Origin: a virus
Strand: one strand, 5' to 3'
Virus record (IMG/VR): IMGVR_UViG_3300021957_000009
Coordinates: 1 to 64,000 of that record
Length of the DNA stretch: 64,000 bases
The position numbers and the translations under genes were made by a program. The notes under the pieces were generated by a model. The model was given only the letters and a program-made list of their open reading frames with translations. It was not told the origin of the DNA and did no database searches. Each line of letters opens with the position of its first letter. The first letter of the stretch is position 1. Shown one piece after another: positions 25,036 through 40,068 of this stretch.

Positions 25036-25613
25036 CCTTTTGTCAATAAACTTAAACATTTATCTCGATTAAAGTTTACAAATGGTTCATATTTCTCGAT
25101 CAATCTACGAGTATCAGGCCATACAATGGTATCCGATATGTTCTTAGACTCACGATCAATGAACTTAAATATGGCGTTAAGAATAACAACAGTCTCTAAA
25201 CTAATCTCTTCTTGCAGCCATAACTTTACCACAAGAGGATGTGCATTGTCACCTGTCTTAAACAAGTAATCAAATGACACATTCTCTTCTGTTAATCTAT
25301 TTATATCAATAGAAAACACACGATGAATACTTTCTTGAATTCGTTTGTGCTCTCTATAGTTTTGTTCTCCCTCTTCATCCATCATATCACCAATGTAACT
25401 TTTACCAGCTTTAAAGTTGGCGACATAATAGTCCTTTAGTTCTCCATTGTGCTTACGTCCAAGCTTTGCAAAAAAGTACTTATCCTTGCGTTTAAAGAAA
25501 GAGTTAGGTGTTACGTTAGACTTAAAATTATATTTAACTGCATCATAGCTAGACTCAAAGTGTAGCTTTAATGCATTATATAGCTTGTAAGATTCAAATG
25601 GATCTGTACTCAT
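25023..25613 (-). CDS. gp59: Helicase loader gp59-like
   Basis: Y..Y.ALK.HF...YD..KY; F.KRKDKYFF.KL; ISLET.VIL; lies between gp33 and gp32. Confidence 0.8.
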   Translation of the reverse strand: MSTDPFESYKLYNALKLHFESSYDAVKYNFKSNVTPNSFFKRKDKYFFAKLGRKHNGELKDYYVANFKAGKSYIGDMMDEEGEQNYREHKRIQESIHRVFSIDINRLTEENVSFDYLFKTGDNAHPLVVKLWLQEEISLETVVILNAIFKFIDRESKNISDTIVWPDTRRLIEKYEPFVNFNRDKCLSLLTKGFTK

Positions 25614-29664: not shown

Positions 29665-30081
29665 TTATATAAAACACTTTTTATATAACTCTTCTTCACG
29701 TTTGTATGCCTCACGTTCCCATGGAGCATTTTCATATTTGTAGTTACGTGGCTTTTTACCCTTCCACGAATGGTTATATCCATTCAGTTCACCACGCAAA
29801 TATTGCTTGGCATGTACCATTTCATGAGCTAGTGTTTGCATCATAGATTCGTATGAAAGCTTTTCACCGTCGGATTTGCGTGCTATAGACATATCAACAT
29901 AACCCTCTTTTGGATCGCCCCAACATAACCCTTGGCTATCGTTATCGAGAGTAGTTTTAAAGTTAATGAAGATACACTTTGAATACATGCGGTTGATACC
30001 AAGCTCTTTGCAAAGAGCATGTGCGTATTCGTAGACTTTCTTTTTGTCTTTGATTTGACCTTTGATTCTAATCTGTGGCAT
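29665..30081 (-). CDS. Zincin-like metallopeptidase (HExxH)
   Basis: TLAHEMVHAKQ and PWE.EAY motifs. Confidence 0.8.
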   Translation of the reverse strand: MPQIRIKGQIKDKKKVYEYAHALCKELGINRMYSKCIFINFKTTLDNDSQGLCWGDPKEGYVDMSIARKSDGEKLSYESMMQTLAHEMVHAKQYLRGELNGYNHSWKGKKPRNYKYENAPWEREAYKREEELYKKCFI

Positions 30082-30176: not shown

Positions 30177-32021
30177 CTATAACTTTGGTGAATAAATGGT
30201 TATAAGCTCTTCTTTGCCCTTTACCTTGATTTTACCTATTTCCTTGCACTTATACTCATTCGGAAGCTGTTCTTGAGTATATGATGATATGATTGTCTTA
30301 TAGTCTACATACTCATGTCGTGCGGCAGTTGCCTCGAGACGGGCTGCAAGATTGACTGCATCTCCAATGACTGAGTAATCGAATCTGGATTCAGAGCCCA
30401 TGTTACCAACAATGCAATCCCCGGTGTTAACGCCAGTACCGACATTAATATCAGGAAGGCCTCTTGATTTATATACCTCTTTAAGTTCATTGGTTTTAGC
30501 CTCTATTTCTATTGATGATTTGACTGCCATTTCAGCATGGTTATCACAAGGCAATGGTGCATTCCAGAATGCCATGATACAGTCGCCCATGTATTTGTCT
30601 ATGGTTCCACCGTTGTTTAATATGATTTTAGTCATAGCATCTAAGAATTCATTAACCAATTCTACTAATCCTTCTGGATCGTCATTGTTTTTATAGTGCT
30701 CTGATATTGGAGTAAACCCACATATATCCATAAACAAGAAAGACATCTCTTTACGATCTCCTCCTAACCTTAACAACTCAGGATTCTTTTGTAGTAGATA
30801 CACCTGCTTCGGATCTAAGTAAGTTTCAAATTGCTTTTTGATCTGCTGTCTTAACATGAATTGCTTATAGAAATTACTGAAGCTTGATGAAGCAAATGTC
30901 ATTATATATAATATCATTGAGTAAGTCATATCAAGGAGAATCTGAGATTCGTACCAGAAGTAGAAAGAAGCGCCAACTGAAGATGCAACAGTCGCAAAGA
31001 AGATTATCATCGACCAAACAATTGGAAGGTGGTATACAGCTAAGACGATTACCAGAGCACCAATTGACATTACCAGGATTTCAAGAAGGTCTGTCCACAC
31101 AGGACGAGAGATGGAAACTTCATCCATTATTGACTGAATGGCAGCAGCCTGAATCTGATGAGCAGGCATTAATCCAGCTGGAGTTGGAATTTGTGAAGCC
31201 AGACCCTTTGCAGTCAGACCAATAAAGACAGCTTGACCACCAAGATTTGGTAACTCACTGCCGTATTCTATCTCTGTAAATTTATAGTTAGGATTAATCC
31301 AAAAAGAACCATTCGCATCTGAAGGTATTCTAAAAGGTCGTATTATAACTTCTTCCACACCTACTTCATTTACTTTTATTGTATAAGATAATCTATCCTG
31401 CATAACTCTTATTGTTTCTAATGCGAACGAAGGATATAATTCATCATTGATTTGTGACACAAGAGGAATTCTTCTTACTAATCCATCAACCTCTGGCATA
31501 GCATTAATTAAACCATGACCCCATGCTTCTTTTTCTAACTGAGGTATATTGGTAACAAGGCCATCATATTTGATTAACCAGTCTAATGGATCTCCGGAAC
31601 CAAATGTGACAGTACCAACATAAGGTGCAGTTTTACTTCTACCATCTGGATCTGCATCTTGAGCAAGTATAACACCATTAGAGTTTATCCACGAAGCAAA
31701 TACTTCATCACCAGCAAACCTATCAGCTTCCGGAAACATAATAGTAAATCCTATCATTCCGGCATTTGCTTCTCGTAAGTCTGATAACATTTGAGCATAT
31801 TGATGCCTTGGAAACGGGTATTGCCCATACTTGGCTAATGCTTCTTCACCGATATTTAATAGTACTACTCCGTTACCAAAATCAGTCTCTGGAATAGTTC
31901 TTATATAACTGTCAAAAGTGTTAAGTCTTAATTGTTCTACTGGAGTTGGATCTGACACTCTTATACCGATAAGCAAAGAGGCTAATATGATTGTGGTCCA
32001 TATTGATGTTAAGTATTTCAT
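30177..32021 (-). CDS. CHASE2-domain class III adenylate cyclase
   Basis: N-terminal TM; CHASE2 features (I.EEAL..YGQYPFPR, F.E.DR..GD, D.DG.VRRIPL); three TMs; cyclase motifs FMDICGFT, IDKYMGDCIMAFW, DYSVIGDAVNLAARLE. Confidence 0.93.
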   Translation of the reverse strand: MKYLTSIWTTIILASLLIGIRVSDPTPVEQLRLNTFDSYIRTIPETDFGNGVVLLNIGEEALAKYGQYPFPRHQYAQMLSDLREANAGMIGFTIMFPEADRFAGDEVFASWINSNGVILAQDADPDGRSKTAPYVGTVTFGSGDPLDWLIKYDGLVTNIPQLEKEAWGHGLINAMPEVDGLVRRIPLVSQINDELYPSFALETIRVMQDRLSYTIKVNEVGVEEVIIRPFRIPSDANGSFWINPNYKFTEIEYGSELPNLGGQAVFIGLTAKGLASQIPTPAGLMPAHQIQAAAIQSIMDEVSISRPVWTDLLEILVMSIGALVIVLAVYHLPIVWSMIIFFATVASSVGASFYFWYESQILLDMTYSMILYIMTFASSSFSNFYKQFMLRQQIKKQFETYLDPKQVYLLQKNPELLRLGGDRKEMSFLFMDICGFTPISEHYKNNDDPEGLVELVNEFLDAMTKIILNNGGTIDKYMGDCIMAFWNAPLPCDNHAEMAVKSSIEIEAKTNELKEVYKSRGLPDINVGTGVNTGDCIVGNMGSESRFDYSVIGDAVNLAARLEATAARHEYVDYKTIISSYTQEQLPNEYKCKEIGKIKVKGKEELITIYSPKL

Positions 32022-32093
32022 ACGTATATATCTATATATATTCCTCGACCACCATTAGGAGATCCGTACTTATAAAGAATATACCGAGCTCGG

Positions 32094-32864
32094 TTATTCT
32101 TGCAGTACTGATACATTACATCCACCAAAAGTCATACAATCAATGCTTAGATTATATGTTTGGTTCATAGTACTCATTTGTTTTAAAATTAAATCTGTTC
32201 CGTATAAACCATCAAGTGTTACGTTTGCGTTGTGTGTTGCACCGTTACCTTTTTGACGAATAAACACATCGTTCTCGTCATTATATATTGCTAAATCTGT
32301 GTTCTTACTACCGTTGCTTTGTTGCTTTATTTGAACTTTATTATTATCGCCTGCTAAGTGCAAATCAAAGTCATGGCCATCCGATGCACCAGTTTGGTTT
32401 GTTTGTTGAACTGCTAATTGATTGTAGTCACCGTACATAGTAATATCTATTTCGTGGCCACCACTCTCATAGTCATCCACCCACCAAGTTAAATCAGTAT
32501 CAGAATCAAGTGTAGTCCATGCAGCACCTTGAGCAAGTTTCATCTGATTACCTGTACCACTCAATTCATCAAAGGTGATTTCATTGGGAAGTCCACCTGT
32601 TGTTGTATTAATCTGCACTAAATACATATCTAGGCTTGATACTGTAATATATGAATTAGCGTCTAACATCTTAATATTATTATTAAAACCATATTGGTCA
32701 ACACCTAATTGAAGGTTATCGCCAGATTGTTCTAATGATATTACGTTATCATCAGCATTTGCAAATAGTGGTGCTATAAGTAGCGACAATACAATAATAG
32801 GCCAAAATAAAACACTTACCCATATTAAAGCTTTCATTGAATATTCTTCTAATTTATCTAACAT
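32094..32864 (-). CDS. Curlin-like secreted repeat protein (CsgA/CsgB-like)
   Basis: Signal peptide ending ANA; repeated Q.G..N / G..N...I.Q motifs; in the csgFG operon. Confidence 0.7.
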   Translation of the reverse strand: MLDKLEEYSMKALIWVSVLFWPIIVLSLLIAPLFANADDNVISLEQSGDNLQLGVDQYGFNNNIKMLDANSYITVSSLDMYLVQINTTTGGLPNEITFDELSGTGNQMKLAQGAAWTTLDSDTDLTWWVDDYESGGHEIDITMYGDYNQLAVQQTNQTGASDGHDFDLHLAGDNNKVQIKQQSNGSKNTDLAIYNDENDVFIRQKGNGATHNANVTLDGLYGTDLILKQMSTMNQTYNLSIDCMTFGGCNVSVLQE

Positions 32865-32865
32865 A

Positions 32866-33975
32866 TTAATTCACCTGATTTATATAGATGAGGATATCTT
32901 CACCCTCATTTCCTGTAATTATTCCATCCCATGTCGGTGTAATTGTATCTACTGTAAAGTTGCCGCCTGCTCCAAATTTAAGTCTAATTACGCCATTAAT
33001 GTTTCTATATAGTACTAAAGATCCGTCTTGTAAAAACACATTAAACTGTGATTCGTCGTTAAACCCTCTTGTCGCACCTTTGATATCAAATTCACCTAAT
33101 GTATCAAATAGATCTGAACTATCTATAATGTCTAATACATCAACTAAAAATTCTACATCTAATTCATCAATATCTAATTCATTGAATTCGTCAAGAGTAT
33201 CTTCTTCTAATTCGTCTTCTTCTAACTCAGTAAACTCTAAAAAATCTACATCTAATAGGCCTTGATCTTCATTCGTGTCGTCAGCCATTTCTTCTTTTAT
33301 CCTCTCCTTTACTTCTTCAGGAGGTGATACAATAAACATGTTGTCAATTAATGATGGTGTAATACCGTTAACTTTAATTGATTGTGTTGGTGATGAATCT
33401 AATGAAGATACCATTGTTGCGGCATAGGCTTCGTTTAATGTAACTACTCCACCTTCATTAGAAACTACTATCTCACCAGATGGATCACCATTCTCATCTG
33501 GTAGTAATATGATTAGGCTTCTACCTAATTCATCTACTGTTGTTGTAAAATCAGTTCCCCGTACGGCAATTGAGGCCGTAGGAGTCTTGATATCAATATT
33601 GGCTTTATTTACTAATCCTAATCTTCCGGATGCAAATCTAGCTGTACCCATTGTAAACTTCATACTCATCTTCGAGAGTGAAGGATCAGGGTCATAATAT
33701 ATTTCGTCTATTAGTACTTCAGAATGTTCTTTTAAAGATAGTTGAGCTTTATCTAAAAACTCAATAAGCATTCTTCCGTTACCAGTTTTTGCTTCATCGT
33801 TTAGTTCTATAGGTATCTGCTTAGATACTTTTATCTCTTCATTGTTACGCACAATCTGGCTTACGCCAGTCGACTCTACTATGTCACCAATGGAATCAGC
33901 ATAGGCGATTCCAGTGATGAATAGTAAGCTAAGAATCCCCAGCTGCGTCTTTTTGATTAATTTGTACAGTAGCAT
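32866..33975 (-). CDS. Periplasmic FecR-domain protein
   Basis: Signal peptide (AYA); D...TG.GR..I.F.D...L.L.E.S...ID; I.TPTA.IAVRGTDF; very acidic C-terminal region. Confidence 0.85.
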   Translation of the reverse strand: MLLYKLIKKTQLGILSLLFITGIAYADSIGDIVESTGVSQIVRNNEEIKVSKQIPIELNDEAKTGNGRMLIEFLDKAQLSLKEHSEVLIDEIYYDPDPSLSKMSMKFTMGTARFASGRLGLVNKANIDIKTPTASIAVRGTDFTTTVDELGRSLIILLPDENGDPSGEIVVSNEGGVVTLNEAYAATMVSSLDSSPTQSIKVNGITPSLIDNMFIVSPPEEVKERIKEEMADDTNEDQGLLDVDFLEFTELEEDELEEDTLDEFNELDIDELDVEFLVDVLDIIDSSDLFDTLGEFDIKGATRGFNDESQFNVFLQDGSLVLYRNINGVIRLKFGAGGNFTVDTITPTWDGIITGNEGEDILIYINQVN

Positions 33976-34669
33976 TGTCTGATGTAATATCTAAATTGAT
34001 GATAGCATTAGGAGTTGCACAAGGTGAACCTCCTACACAAGTACCTGAAATCTGATTAATATCAATGTCACCACTATCTCCATTCCACTCTACAGTCAAT
34101 GATTGAGAACCATCGTTTTGTAATGTGTTGAAGTTATTGCTGTCACCAGTAATATCAAAGTTCCAAGTTACATCATCAGATTCAAAATCTAAATCAAATA
34201 TATTTGAACCACCTAACAGAATTAAATCTGCATCTAATCTTTCTGCACTTGCACCAACTTTACCTTGATCTATATCAAATGTATTACTGTCTCCAGTAAT
34301 AGCGAAATCGTAGTTAGAATCGTCTGAACTTCCAGTGTATCCAATGTTCCAATCAACTTCGTTTGAATCACCTGTTAACGTAAAAGTTAAATCAGAGTTA
34401 TTCATGTCAATTGGTCCATATATCAAGTTTTGATTTCCTATCATATCGATATCGAATGTTAAACCTGAACCTACAATAGTCATATCAGAACCGGAACTAG
34501 TAAAATCTTCTAAACCGATTTTGTTACCATATCCAACCTGATCAATATACAACGTTAATGTATCACCGCTTTGTTCTATCATAATTTCGTTATCGTCAGT
34601 TGCTTGCGCGAAAATAGAATTTGCTGTAAATAGAAATAGCACTGCTGCTATACTAGTTAATTTCTTCAT
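33929..34669 (-). CDS. Curlin-like secreted repeat protein (CsgA/CsgB-like)
   Basis: Signal peptide MKKLTSIAAVLFLFTANSIFA; about 23-aa repeats (IEQSGD, DQVGYGN, ITGDSN). Start set at ATG 34669 after GAGGA. Confidence 0.75.
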   Translation of the reverse strand: MKKLTSIAAVLFLFTANSIFAQATDDNEIMIEQSGDTLTLYIDQVGYGNKIGLEDFTSSGSDMTIVGSGLTFDIDMIGNQNLIYGPIDMNNSDLTFTLTGDSNEVDWNIGYTGSSDDSNYDFAITGDSNTFDIDQGKVGASAERLDADLILLGGSNIFDLDFESDDVTWNFDITGDSNNFNTLQNDGSQSLTVEWNGDSGDIDINQISGTCVGGSPCATPNAIINLDITSDNATVQINQKDAAGDS

Positions 34670-35636
34670 TTTTCGTTTCCTCTTTGTTTGCATGCCTTTC
34701 GTTTTTCCCATCAACTTGATGAGGATGCCTATGGCCTGCGGTTAAATCCCAGAACTTACGGTCGTGGCCCTGGTAGATTAATTCCAGTACAGCAGCTTCA
34801 ATAGCTGACCGTACTGCATACGTCACTGACTCATTATTTCCCACTCCGTCCTCATACTCGATAAGTTGCGTGCCTTGTTCATAGAACCTAAACACATCAC
34901 CCGACGAGCCGTAAGAAAGTACCGATTTCTTAGCTTGGACGTTTAACAAAACTTCACCTGTCAATACAGACACTGCTCTCACAGATACTGTAACAACATC
35001 TTTACGATACATCCTACTAAAACCTATGCCAAGAGTTCTTGCGCCTCGGCCTCCAGTTTCCATATTCGTATCATAACCTATAATACCACCCTCAATAATC
35101 ATTCCTGCAAATAAGAGTGGGCCAACACCATTTGGTTCTACACCATTAGCTTTAGCGACATCTTGACGAGTAGATCTTACTATTTGTCTTTCTCGTACAA
35201 GATTGTCTATTCCTTGCCTTTCTACTACTCTAAACCAGGTTCCTCCACCTGCTGTTTTGAGAGCATCTATTAACATTTCAGTACCGCCTTGGGTAACTGC
35301 AGTAGAAAACGATGCTATATTATCTACTGATTTTCTTTGACCTGTTAAATCTTTAAATCCATACACTGCAACTACTGGTTGAACCTTTGCTGCCGGCAAA
35401 TTGAGAAGATCCACAAACGCTGGAAGCTTTACAGCTTCTGGGGCATCAACACATATATACTTTCTGGCCATTGCCTTTTGTATACCCATTTGCGCATGCC
35501 TATTAAAACCTTCATCATATTTGCCATCAAGATCATTGCAATCCTGAGGGTTATTACTCCACTGTGGAACAGATGCGCATCCACTAAGTAGTAGTAATAC
35601 TAATATGTACTTACCCACCGTCTGAATCCTGGCCAA
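34653..35636 (-). CDS. csgG: Curli secretion channel lipoprotein CsgG
   Basis: Lipobox LSGC; VAVY.F.D.TGQRK, FSTAVTQGG, WF.VVER.G..NL..ERQI.R, IEGGIIGYD.N..TGG.GAR.LGIG. Confidence 0.93.
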   Translation of the reverse strand: MARIQTVGKYILVLLLLSGCASVPQWSNNPQDCNDLDGKYDEGFNRHAQMGIQKAMARKYICVDAPEAVKLPAFVDLLNLPAAKVQPVVAVYGFKDLTGQRKSVDNIASFSTAVTQGGTEMLIDALKTAGGGTWFRVVERQGIDNLVRERQIVRSTRQDVAKANGVEPNGVGPLLFAGMIIEGGIIGYDTNMETGGRGARTLGIGFSRMYRKDVVTVSVRAVSVLTGEVLLNVQAKKSVLSYGSSGDVFRFYEQGTQLIEYEDGVGNNESVTYAVRSAIEAAVLELIYQGHDRKFWDLTAGHRHPHQVDGKNERHANKEETKNEEIN

Positions 35637-36111
35637 AGTTGCCAGTTCCTACTGGTATCTCAATAACTGTAGTTGTTCCATCGGAATCTACAATTGTCAT
35701 TTTAATAAACTCTGAACCATCTTCGTTTGTCATAACTTCATATGTTACTACATTACCTTCTAAAGTAAATGAGCCATATCGAACAGATCCATCATTACTA
35801 AACATAGATTCGACAAGTTGTTTAGACATTTGAGCATATATTCTACTCTCTAAATTACGTATAAACTTAGCCATAGTTGTATTTGCTTCTTCTCTTTCCG
35901 CTGCTTTTCTTGCTGCCTCTAAAGCATCTACTATAGCTTTTTTCCTTGTATGTTCTATATTATCAACTGTTAAATAATGTGCTCCAGTTCCAACTCCACT
36001 AAATGATGGATTTTTAAAGCCAAATTTTATTTCATCTGCTTGTACTACAAGGCTTTGTAAAGCCAATACAAACATTCCAGTTAACAATACATCTTCAATT
36101 TTTATCTTCAT
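35611..36111 (-). CDS. csgF: Curli assembly component CsgF
   Basis: Signal peptide followed by F.FKNPSFSG; F...L.SRIYAQ.S..L; ends TTVIEIP; directly upstream of csgG. Confidence 0.88.
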   Translation of the reverse strand: MKIKIEDVLLTGMFVLALQSLVVQADEIKFGFKNPSFSGVGTGAHYLTVDNIEHTRKKAIVDALEAARKAAEREEANTTMAKFIRNLESRIYAQMSKQLVESMFSNDGSVRYGSFTLEGNVVTYEVMTNEDGSEFIKMTIVDSDGTTTVIEIPVGTGNFGQDSDGG

Positions 36112-36373
36112 TTTTACTCTCATTTATCTTCTTCTGCCTTTCTCTATATTCTAAAACGACCTTTACCTTTTCTTGTAGTCGTATCATATCCTGATCAAGC
36201 ATTCTAATTTGATCAATAAGTCTTATAAGGCCCATGTGCATTTCTTCAAGCTTTGGATCTAGTTCTTCATTAATGAACTTCCATATAAAAAACACGAAAT
36301 AAGCCATTCCTACAATGGCTACAGTCGTAAATCCGTACTGCTCGATTAAAACCGCTGGATTTAAGGCGTCCAT
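36095..36373 (-). CDS. Small membrane protein (TM + coiled coil), paralogue of the upstream gene
   Basis: YGF...AIVGMAYFVFFIW, then LIDQIRMLDQDMIRL. Confidence 0.75.
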   Translation of the reverse strand: MDALNPAVLIEQYGFTTVAIVGMAYFVFFIWKFINEELDPKLEEMHMGLIRLIDQIRMLDQDMIRLQEKVKVVLEYRERQKKINESKNEDKN

Positions 36374-36374
36374 A

Positions 36375-36671
36375 TTAATCCCTTCGGACGTCTATTTTAC
36401 CGTCTTCCACAAAGTTTTCTGATCGAGCAATTCTATCGATAGGTGGAGTTAACTCTAAAGCACTAGATACTAACATATCGATCTTTATTATTTCGTTATT
36501 CATTGTTCGGGCTCTATTTTCTAGGCCCTTTGTGAATATATTAAGGGTGTCTATTTGGTCTAAAACTCCTGATAGCATTTGCTTTATAATCGTAAATATA
36601 AAGAACCCAGACGCTAAAGCGCCTGCAATGGGTAATCCTACATCACTGATTAAACCAAATATATCTGGCAT
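36375..36671 (-). CDS. Small membrane protein (TM + coiled coil)
   Basis: VGLPIAGALASGFFIFTII, then LENRARTMNNEIIKID; ends D.RRD. Confidence 0.75.
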   Translation of the reverse strand: MPDIFGLISDVGLPIAGALASGFFIFTIIKQMLSGVLDQIDTLNIFTKGLENRARTMNNEIIKIDMLVSSALELTPPIDRIARSENFVEDGKIDVRRD

Positions 36672-36916
36672 TAGCTACTTTTAGCGATACTGACAGCTTT
36701 AAGACCGGCACCACCTTCCAAGGTATCTGCTGGCATCTTAGAAACCAATTCAATTGCTTTACTTGGAATTGTCATAGTTCCTAAAACCACTGCACCCAAT
36801 TTTTGAGTCATGACAACATCCGCAGCAGTACTATTATATACTCTTACTAATGTCGCTTTACCCATATCGGTAGCTGATGTTAAGTCGCCCTGACTTCCTA
36901 ACAATTTAATTTTCAT
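36671..36916 (-). CDS. Small beta-rich hypothetical (possibly virion) protein
   Basis: 81 aa; A.LVRVYN, GT.TIP, K...DTL; AGGAG RBS. Confidence 0.7.
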   Translation of the reverse strand: MKIKLLGSQGDLTSATDMGKATLVRVYNSTAADVVMTQKLGAVVLGTMTIPSKAIELVSKMPADTLEGGAGLKAVSIAKSS

Positions 36917-36928
36917 CTTTTTCTCCTG

Positions 36929-37120
36929 TTATGAACTAACTAAATTTAGCTCTTCTAAACTTTTATGCCAATCTGAGTATCTGAAAAGTCCCTGCTTTTC
37001 ATGACACCAAAACCAACCTTTACTTTTTTGTTCTTCTTGCGGTATACTAGATTCGACCTTTAAAGGGCCTCTAGTCTTCCCATAAGTCGTTCTGCTCTGT
37101 TCGTTACTTGCTTGTACCAT
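36929..37120 (-). CDS. Small hypothetical protein overlapping the lysozyme 3' end (start uncertain)
   Basis: Fills the gap; GWFWCHE...FRYSDW looks protein-like, but the start lies inside the lysozyme gene. Confidence 0.35.
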   Translation of the reverse strand: MVQASNEQSRTTYGKTRGPLKVESSIPQEEQKSKGWFWCHEKQGLFRYSDWHKSLEELNLVSS

Positions 37121-37530
37121 CTTGAATCTCTCCCCTCAACAGCCGCAACCGGCCAATCACCACACTGCAGCGCTGCATTGTGCTTTTTAAATTTACTTAA
37201 GCGCGTAAGTCCCATGTTGAACATCATGTTCGCAATGACTTGTTTCACTTCTTGTGGATATCCATCCCATGCATCGTGTAATTTTTTACAATCTTCGATT
37301 ACTGTTTCTACATCCTTGGCAAAGCATGATATAACTCTATCCTCTGAGACATCAGTACCGACCGGAAGCCCAAATTCTGGGTCTCCTTCGATAACCAGGT
37401 GTCCAATACCAAATGTAGCATAACCGAGGTGATCATGATAAATTTCATTAACTTGTCCCTCGTCTATAATTAATTGTTCTCTTAATTGATCTACATCAAT
37501 CACCGTTTTTTCTTCTTTGTCCCAAAACAT
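37060..37530 (-). CDS. Endolysin, T4-lysozyme/GH24 family
   Basis: L..DEG....IY.D.LG..T.GIGHL catalytic E-D-T pattern; NM.FNMG..RL..FK; DSRWY.QV.NRA.RL. Confidence 0.9.
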   Translation of the reverse strand: MFWDKEEKTVIDVDQLREQLIIDEGQVNEIYHDHLGYATFGIGHLVIEGDPEFGLPVGTDVSEDRVISCFAKDVETVIEDCKKLHDAWDGYPQEVKQVIANMMFNMGLTRLSKFKKHNAALQCGDWPVAAVEGRDSRWYKQVTNRAERLMGRLEAL

Positions 37531-40060: not shown

Positions 40061-40068
40061 TATTTATA
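40061..40068 (-). promoter_or_regulatory. T4-type late promoter TATAAATA
   Basis: Exact motif 18 bp upstream of the 40042 start. Confidence 0.78.

Follow-up and report, generated by a model that had tools for sequence, protein, structure and literature searches.

Genes for a type VIII (curli) secretion system (T8SS) have been described in several marine phages. Zaragoza-Solas et al. 2020 found csgF and csgG next to three unnamed genes in pelagimyophages, Buchholz et al. 2022 found the like in Melnitz, a phage of OM43, and Wittmers et al. 2022 (PMC9599517) gave the full arrangement, in podophages as well as myophages of SAR11, as one or two "histidine kinases", CsgF, CsgG, CsgA/B, FecR, a second CsgA/B and adenylate cyclase. 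According to the last study, the block occurs at all 65 GOV2.0 stations and in metatranscriptomes, and its FecR and cyclase genes do not lie within bacterial T8SS operons; the papers also state that the host has no T8SS of its own. GenBank annotates the block in Pelagibacter phage HTVC008M (KC465899, 6900-13807) and in Melnitz (MZ577097, 50118-56876), the latter entry using the names FecR and curlin. The current study concerns such a block at nt 30177-36671 of a stretch of 64,000 nt (the window, i.e. this whole stretch), which belongs to the IMG/VR record IMGVR_UViG_3300021957_000009, a 101-kb sequence of a T4-like marine phage that is about 56% complete and has HTVC008M as its closest cultured relative. 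The block has the same eight genes in the same order as the published regions (PMC9599517, HTVC008M, Melnitz), with no difference of substance. It was thus already known, and this copy is another uncultured member of the pelagiphage T8SS (curli) module, an assignment that is regarded as nearly certain. What is new is the occurrence of its core in bacterial chromosomes, a single clade of T8SS-linked cyclases, the adjacency of FecR and CHASE2 genes, the want of support for the histidine-kinase label, and the scarcity of cyclic nucleotide (cNMP)-binding domains. The eight genes are as follows (TM, transmembrane).

36375..36671, minus strand: TM1, a 98-aa single-pass membrane protein with a helical tail, paralogue of TM2 (phrog_18771)
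36095..36373, minus strand: TM2, a 92-aa single-pass membrane protein with a coiled-coil-like tail (phrog_18771)
35611..36123, minus strand: CsgF homologue with a signal peptide (Pfam CsgF)
34653..35636, minus strand: CsgG homologue, outer-membrane lipoprotein channel (Pfam CsgG, lipobox)
33929..34669, minus strand: curlin-like subunit A, a predicted exported beta-solenoid (sub-threshold Curlin_rpt match, AlphaFold model; a TTG at 34714 also opens the open reading frame, ORF)
32866..33975, minus strand: exported FecR-domain protein (Pfam FecR, PupR fold match)
32094..32864, minus strand: curlin-like subunit B, paralogue of A (BLASTP against A; likely start ATG at 32837)
30177..32021, minus strand: fusion of a CHASE2 receptor and a class III adenylate cyclase, inner membrane (Pfam CHASE2, Guanylate_cyc)

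An earlier reading of the window, made from the letters and ORF translations (the sequence-only reading), had placed eight tightly packed, co-oriented genes at these positions, and the ORF calls agree: all lie on the minus strand, and neighbouring ORFs overlap or are 1 nt apart, with the sole exception of a 72-nt gap ahead of the cyclase gene. Its calls of csgF, csgG, FecR, CHASE2 and a class III cyclase also held when the families were searched with hidden Markov models, as the Pfam scores all exceed their cut-offs: CsgG 175.7 bits (cut-off 20.8), CsgF 52.6 bits (25.8; profile positions 5-132 of 132), FecR 34.0 bits (24), CHASE2 138.3 bits (26.3; residues 16-324) and Guanylate_cyc 71.8 bits (21.9).

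Eighty related viral loci were fetched with CsgG (63-99% identity). The order TM1, TM2, CsgF, CsgG, curlin A, FecR, curlin B is conserved in every one of them, and the cyclase gene comes next in all 50 that extend far enough, so that FecR and the cyclase are syntenic with csgFG. That the block might be host DNA mis-assembled into a phage contig had been raised by the sequence-only reading itself, and the closest non-viral relatives are indeed alphaproteobacterial. However, the block lies between phage genes in all 80 viral loci and in the complete genomes of the cultured phages HTVC008M and Melnitz, and its G+C content (0.35-0.38) is that of the rest of the window; mis-assembly is thereby refuted and retains virtually no probability. 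The block is real, intact and strictly conserved.

Like the enterobacterial csgBAC-csgDEFG locus, the phage block has a CsgG channel and a CsgF with an NPxFxG N-terminal segment, and its putative fibre subunits would likewise be repeat-built beta-solenoids. It differs from that locus in the absence of CsgE, for which there was no match in the 101-kb record at E <= 1, in that neither CsgC nor CsgD was recognised, in its very divergent subunits (Curlin_rpt under the cut-off), and in an operon that includes a FecR-type protein and a cyclase. The sequence-only reading, which had recognised no csgE, csgC, csgD or Crp in the window, had held that this is not a plain copy of the enteric csg locus; a cNMP-binding/Crp domain was likewise not found in the record (see below). 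Near its N-terminus CsgG has a lipobox, LSGC, and a lipobox is seen in 41 of the 44 distinct viral homologues. Among 52 distinct viral homologues of CsgF, 50 carry the motif FKNPSFSG right after the signal peptide; this is presumably the segment of CsgF that is seated in the CsgG barrel in the E. coli CsgFG structures. Its retention counts against the suggestion by Buchholz et al. 2022 that the phage CsgF has become separated from CsgG. E. coli CsgF was not retrieved when the phage protein was compared with PDB sequences by phmmer, although the Pfam CsgF profile did match.

According to one alternative (PMC7029224, PMC9599517), CsgG without CsgE is an open pore through which nutrients or cofactors could enter or small molecules leave; the curlin-like proteins would then be secondary. 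The failure to find CsgE in the phage record is in keeping with this, as is the published lack of a T8SS in the host, but it leaves unexplained why CsgF, both fibre-like subunits, the FecR-type protein and the cyclase are so strictly conserved. Moreover, alphaproteobacterial curli loci generally lack CsgE as well (PMC9599517), and CsgE therefore does not define the wider family. An open channel is considered highly unlikely to be the function of the block.

The two curlin-like calls of the sequence-only reading survive in part. Both subunits score under the Curlin_rpt cut-off of 20.7 bits (A, 19.4 bits; B, 18.8 bits), but repeat matches across the family and a beta-solenoid model speak for them. 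Curlin_rpt is the sole Pfam family that matches the curlin A family (18 of 23 members, best E 7.7e-5). Subunit A has a signal peptide and GDSN-type repeats, and B, with a signal-peptide-like N-terminus, resembles A by BLASTP (E 2e-10, 33% identity). The AlphaFold model of A (predicted local distance difference test score, pLDDT, 72) is an all-beta solenoid, for which the Pontibacter curli protein CsgA (8c50_A) is tied as the top structural match (Z 15.7, 19% identity, root-mean-square deviation, rmsd, 9.0), other beta-helices scoring as high. A Foldseek search of this model against the PDB returned nothing at E <= 0.001, only weak beta-helix rows. Curlin-like A and B are taken, with moderate confidence, to be fibre subunits.

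The sixth gene in the order of the block encodes a FecR-domain protein rather than a FecR regulator, since it has neither an anti-sigma domain nor a membrane anchor; no further Pfam family was matched. A signal-peptide-like helix (residues 2-20) is followed directly by the FecR domain, and the structural model (pLDDT 79) comprises a signal peptide, a FecR/PupR-type domain, an acidic disordered linker and a confident small C-terminal beta domain. Residues 57-216 match the C-terminal signalling domain of PupR (6ovk_R) with a Foldseek E of 2.5e-4 and, by VIA, a Z of 15.2 (rmsd 3.0 over 137 residues). The protein thus shares the periplasmic FecR domain fold with the FecA-FecR-FecI and PupB-PupR systems. 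It differs from them in having no cytoplasmic anti-sigma domain or membrane anchor, and no TonB-dependent transducer or extracytoplasmic function (ECF) sigma factor was seen in the block. The small C-terminal domain, residues 296-369, returned nothing in a protein atlas search, and the possibility that it is a curlin-like repeat was discarded, as hhalign gave a probability of 0.4% between the FecR and curlin A families. A separate observation is that residues 26-121 resemble the periplasmic cell-surface anchoring domain of the Marinomonas repeats-in-toxin (RTX) adhesin MpIBP (5ix9; Foldseek E 3.9e-3, 24% identity; VIA Z 6.9, 73/76 residues), a domain that holds the adhesin at its outer-membrane pore. 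The Z lies below the level that excludes a merely common arrangement, and the likeness is a lead only.

In the window only curlin B separates the FecR-type gene from the CHASE2 gene, and a comparable proximity is frequent in other proteobacteria. A FecR search, with a 9-sequence alignment as the query and one genome kept per species, gave 80 loci. CsgG is absent from 70 FecR loci, all of which belong to assemblies with a bacterial label, and 29 of these have a CHASE2 gene within 3 kb, a figure that is a lower bound as it comes from a single tblastn query. Thirteen of these 29 CHASE2 genes carry a cyclase and 16 another or undetected output. Two such pairs are on record: in a Burkholderia biofilm operon (BiofilmReg, PMC5192318) a LysM-FecR gene adjoins that of a CHASE2 histidine kinase, and in S. 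meliloti SMc02177, with a FecR domain, lies beside the CHASE2 cyclase gene cyaD1 (PMC5498481). They resemble the phage pair in that a gene for a FecR-domain protein with a signal peptide stands next to one for a CHASE2 membrane receptor, and differ in the lack of a T8SS, in a kinase output in some, and in the LysM domain of the Burkholderia protein, which is absent here. This recurrent adjacency is the best support for reading FecR and CHASE2 as one sensor, and the FecR-type protein and the CHASE2 cyclase are probably a periplasmic sensor pair. A complex prediction for FecR residues 27-225 with the periplasmic residues 22-312 of the CHASE2 protein, made with alignments, gave an ipSAE of 0.00 in both runs, which had no controls and speak neither for nor against binding.

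In the cyclase itself, the CHASE2 domain is flanked by hydrophobic segments before and after (the latter at roughly residues 312-390), and the cyclase domain occupies residues 424-608. Its best solved relative is CyaB of P. aeruginosa (3r5g, E 7e-33). D432, K476, D480, D548, N557 and R561, which are the two metal-binding aspartates, the lysine and aspartate that specify ATP, and the asparagine and arginine of the transition state, are invariant in 22 viral and bacterial homologues. The full residue set of an ATP-specific class III enzyme is thus present, and synthesis of cyclic AMP (cAMP) is predicted.

The core of the block is not confined to phages. It was found in two Henriciella assemblies and in two contigs of Caulobacteraceae metagenome-assembled genomes (MAGs) (L090, L091, L084, L085). 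Three of these four clusters consist of csgF, csgG, one or two unnamed genes, FecR and the CHASE2 cyclase, in that order; in the fourth (L091), where the contig is cut upstream, only a curlin B-like match, FecR and the cyclase remain. One of the Henriciella contigs is 396 kb long, and housekeeping genes flank the cluster both in Henriciella L090 and in Caulobacteraceae L085. The unnamed genes of the L090 and L085 clusters are homologous to curlin A (hhalign 95.8% and 97.5%). Identity to the phage proteins is 55% for CsgG, 38-40% for the cyclase and 36-41% for FecR. The bacterial clusters accordingly have the six-gene core in phage order, but lack TM1 and TM2 and are set among housekeeping genes. 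The statement of PMC9599517 on bacterial operons has to be qualified, because FecR and the cyclase do lie inside these bacterial T8SS clusters. The csgF-csgG-curlin-FecR-CHASE2 cyclase arrangement is nevertheless rare in bacteria: among 401 sampled Alphaproteobacteria, a strong CsgG occurs in eight genomes, and in none of the other seven does CHASE2 stand beside it.

Six further block loci (L086, L087, L088, L089, L092, L094) are filed in MAGs labelled bacterial, namely Pelagibacter, Flavobacteriaceae, Luteolibacter, Polynucleobacter and two Bacteroidetes, and TM1/TM2 are present in four of them. The two that were checked, L088 and L094, have T4-like replication genes, clamp loader, ligase and endolysin genes as neighbours, with strong PHROG matches, and are therefore phage contigs that were binned with bacteria. 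Labels were at odds elsewhere too: two loci under the names 'Proteobacteria bacterium UBA2136' (L139) and 'Kordia sp. TARA_039' (L154) carry identical CHASE2 cyclase genes and seem to be the same DNA filed under two phyla.

All T8SS-linked cyclases, whether from viruses or from bacteria, fall into one clade of the cyclase tree, with a Shimodaira-Hasegawa-like approximate likelihood ratio (SH-aLRT) support of 100, apart from FecR-linked CHASE2 cyclases without a T8SS, and the marine viral copies have a clade to themselves (SH-aLRT 100). The FecR tree places the bacterial copies as the sister group of the marine viral clade (97). FecR and the cyclase have thus travelled with the T8SS genes, and the six-gene core would be an alphaproteobacterial-type unit common to phages and a few bacteria. 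Both maximum-likelihood trees put the bacterial copies among phage copies, since the group made up of bacterial and marine viral sequences excludes some of the phage sequences; as a single phage clade was not rejected by the approximately unbiased (AU) test (p 0.42), no direction of transfer is claimed.

These observations are best brought together as follows. The infecting phage would supply a host that lacks a T8SS with an outer-membrane pore and surface fibres, and the FecR-type protein and the CHASE2 domain would jointly sense in the periplasm and set the synthesis of cAMP, the input most likely being the export state of the subunits or the state of the envelope. As an overall account of the block (a pelagiphage T8SS module with fibres and a FecR-CHASE2 sensor) this is judged rather probable; for the mechanism in the strict sense, that fibres are made and that FecR and CHASE2 are a sensor pair, the balance is even.

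Several points weigh against it. The assignment of the curlins is based on sub-threshold repeat matches and a generic beta-solenoid fold, Melnitz-infected cells did not clump (Buchholz et al. 2022), and in S. meliloti smc02177 is dispensable for signal perception by the CHASE2 cyclases (PMC5498481). A further concern is the fate of the cAMP. Searches of the 101-kb record, the whole HTVC008M genome and four large relatives turned up no cNMP-binding domain, and in Pelagibacteraceae, the likely host family, such a domain is present in only two of 61 sampled genomes. Only three of the same 61 contain a class III cyclase domain. One of these three cyclase matches contains 7 in-frame TGA codons, and some of the cyclase matches may be binned phage contigs. 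The two bacterial carriers of the core have 4 and 7 cNMP-binding matches, none of which adjoins the block. In a SAR11-like host, if that is the host, cAMP would be a foreign molecule without a recognised reader, and this is the point of greatest interest in the analysis.

The sequence-only reading went further and proposed a circuit across the whole envelope that may convert surface contact, aggregation or superinfection to cAMP, with the fibre and the CsgG/CsgF pore as the input to the FecR-type protein and, through it, to the CHASE2 cyclase. The general idea of trans-envelope signalling is plausible from the gene content. Between them the parts reach across the envelope, phages and two bacterial lineages inherit the genes as a unit, and FecR-fold domains bind outer-membrane transducers in cell-surface signalling (PupR-PupB, 6ovk). 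Gene linkage backs the half of the circuit that leads from FecR through CHASE2 to cAMP, but the half in which fibre and pore provide the input has no support. CsgG has no signalling domain of the FecA/PupB type, so that the relay from pore to FecR is an analogy by name, and the FecR-type protein has a signal peptide but neither the anchor nor the anti-sigma part of FecR. FecR-CHASE2 pairs are common without a T8SS, and so can work without the pore; neither the phage nor the relatives searched yielded a cAMP receptor, and such receptors are rare in Pelagibacteraceae; and nothing points to contact, aggregation or superinfection as triggers. The fibre-to-cAMP circuit in this form is unlikely.

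TM1 and TM2, the only phage addition to the bacterial core, were observed in no other than phage contexts; TM1 as the query had no match in two bacterial genomes bearing the core block. TM1 was found in 77 of the 80 viral loci, directly upstream of TM2. Both match the uncharacterised family phrog_18771 (TM1, E 2.6e-21; TM2, E 6.5e-25) and are therefore paralogues, as the sequence-only reading had supposed, and neither matched a Pfam family. In the TM2 alignment the N-terminal segment is hydrophobic, and a helix, LIDQxRMLDQDxIRLQ, is conserved. The "histidine kinase" label given to these proteins in PMC9599517 is not supported: no kinase domain is found by Pfam or PHROG, a length of 92-98 aa is too short to house the ATPase domain, only 10 of 42 distinct TM1 homologues have any histidine at all, and the histidine of TM2 is not invariant. 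In the protein atlas TM1 finds only viral clusters without a Pfam family; that one of these is automatically named MotA/TolQ/ExbB-like is an unsupported lead.

Buchholz et al. 2022 proposed that CsgG, with or without CsgF, helps to time lysis as a pinholin- or secretin-like pore; the small membrane proteins, which head the block in phages alone, would then be holin- or spanin-like helpers. The sole support for a link with lysis is a T4-lysozyme-like gene (nt 37060-37530, minus strand) that matches the endolysin and tail-lysozyme families of PHROG and lies just upstream, 390 nt from TM1, and whose position is kept in 35 of the 80 related viral loci. CsgG, however, is an outer-membrane lipoprotein and not an inner-membrane holin, CsgF retains its CsgG-binding motif, conservation extends beyond CsgG to two exported fibre subunits, the FecR-type protein and the cyclase, and the same core is found in bacterial chromosomes without lysis genes. 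Lysis timing is considered very unlikely.

Between the lysozyme-like gene and TM1 are two small ORFs (36671-36916, phrog_19805; 36929-37120). No late promoter TATAAATA occurs between nt 25306 and 40060, and the nearest upstream TATAAATA on the minus strand is at 40061-40068, 3.4 kb ahead of TM1; it could give rise to a long minus-strand transcript that runs through the lysozyme-like gene into the block. Sites resembling sigma-70 promoters were no more frequent than in shuffled sequences. Directly downstream of the cyclase (29665-30081, minus strand) is a gene for a 138-aa protein with a zinc-peptidase motif, HEMVH, which has weak SprT-like and Peptidase_M91 matches (phrog_16532 and phrog_10499) and lacks a signal peptide. 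It stands in the same place after the cyclase in 21 related viral loci, and this protein may or may not be a member of the block.

Returning to the account preferred here, a phage-supplied T8SS with fibres and a FecR-CHASE2 sensor, a more far-reaching version can be put forward tentatively, although as a whole it is rather improbable. In this version phages and a few Alphaproteobacteria would share a separate, monophyletic unit for envelope sensing, the T8SS-linked FecR/CHASE2 cyclase, in which the FecR-type protein reports curlin load or assembly to the cyclase. In SAR11-type hosts, almost all of which are without cNMP-binding proteins and class III cyclases, a phage or host receptor of an as yet unrecognised kind would read the phage-made cAMP, or the cAMP would act outside the cell. 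Henriciella, a genus with cultured species, is a candidate host for genetic tests of the link between FecR, the CHASE2 cyclase and curli, which would be much harder in SAR11. If infected cells do make fibres, or sense their envelope by way of a foreign second messenger, the effect of infection on aggregation, superinfection and carbon export would change.

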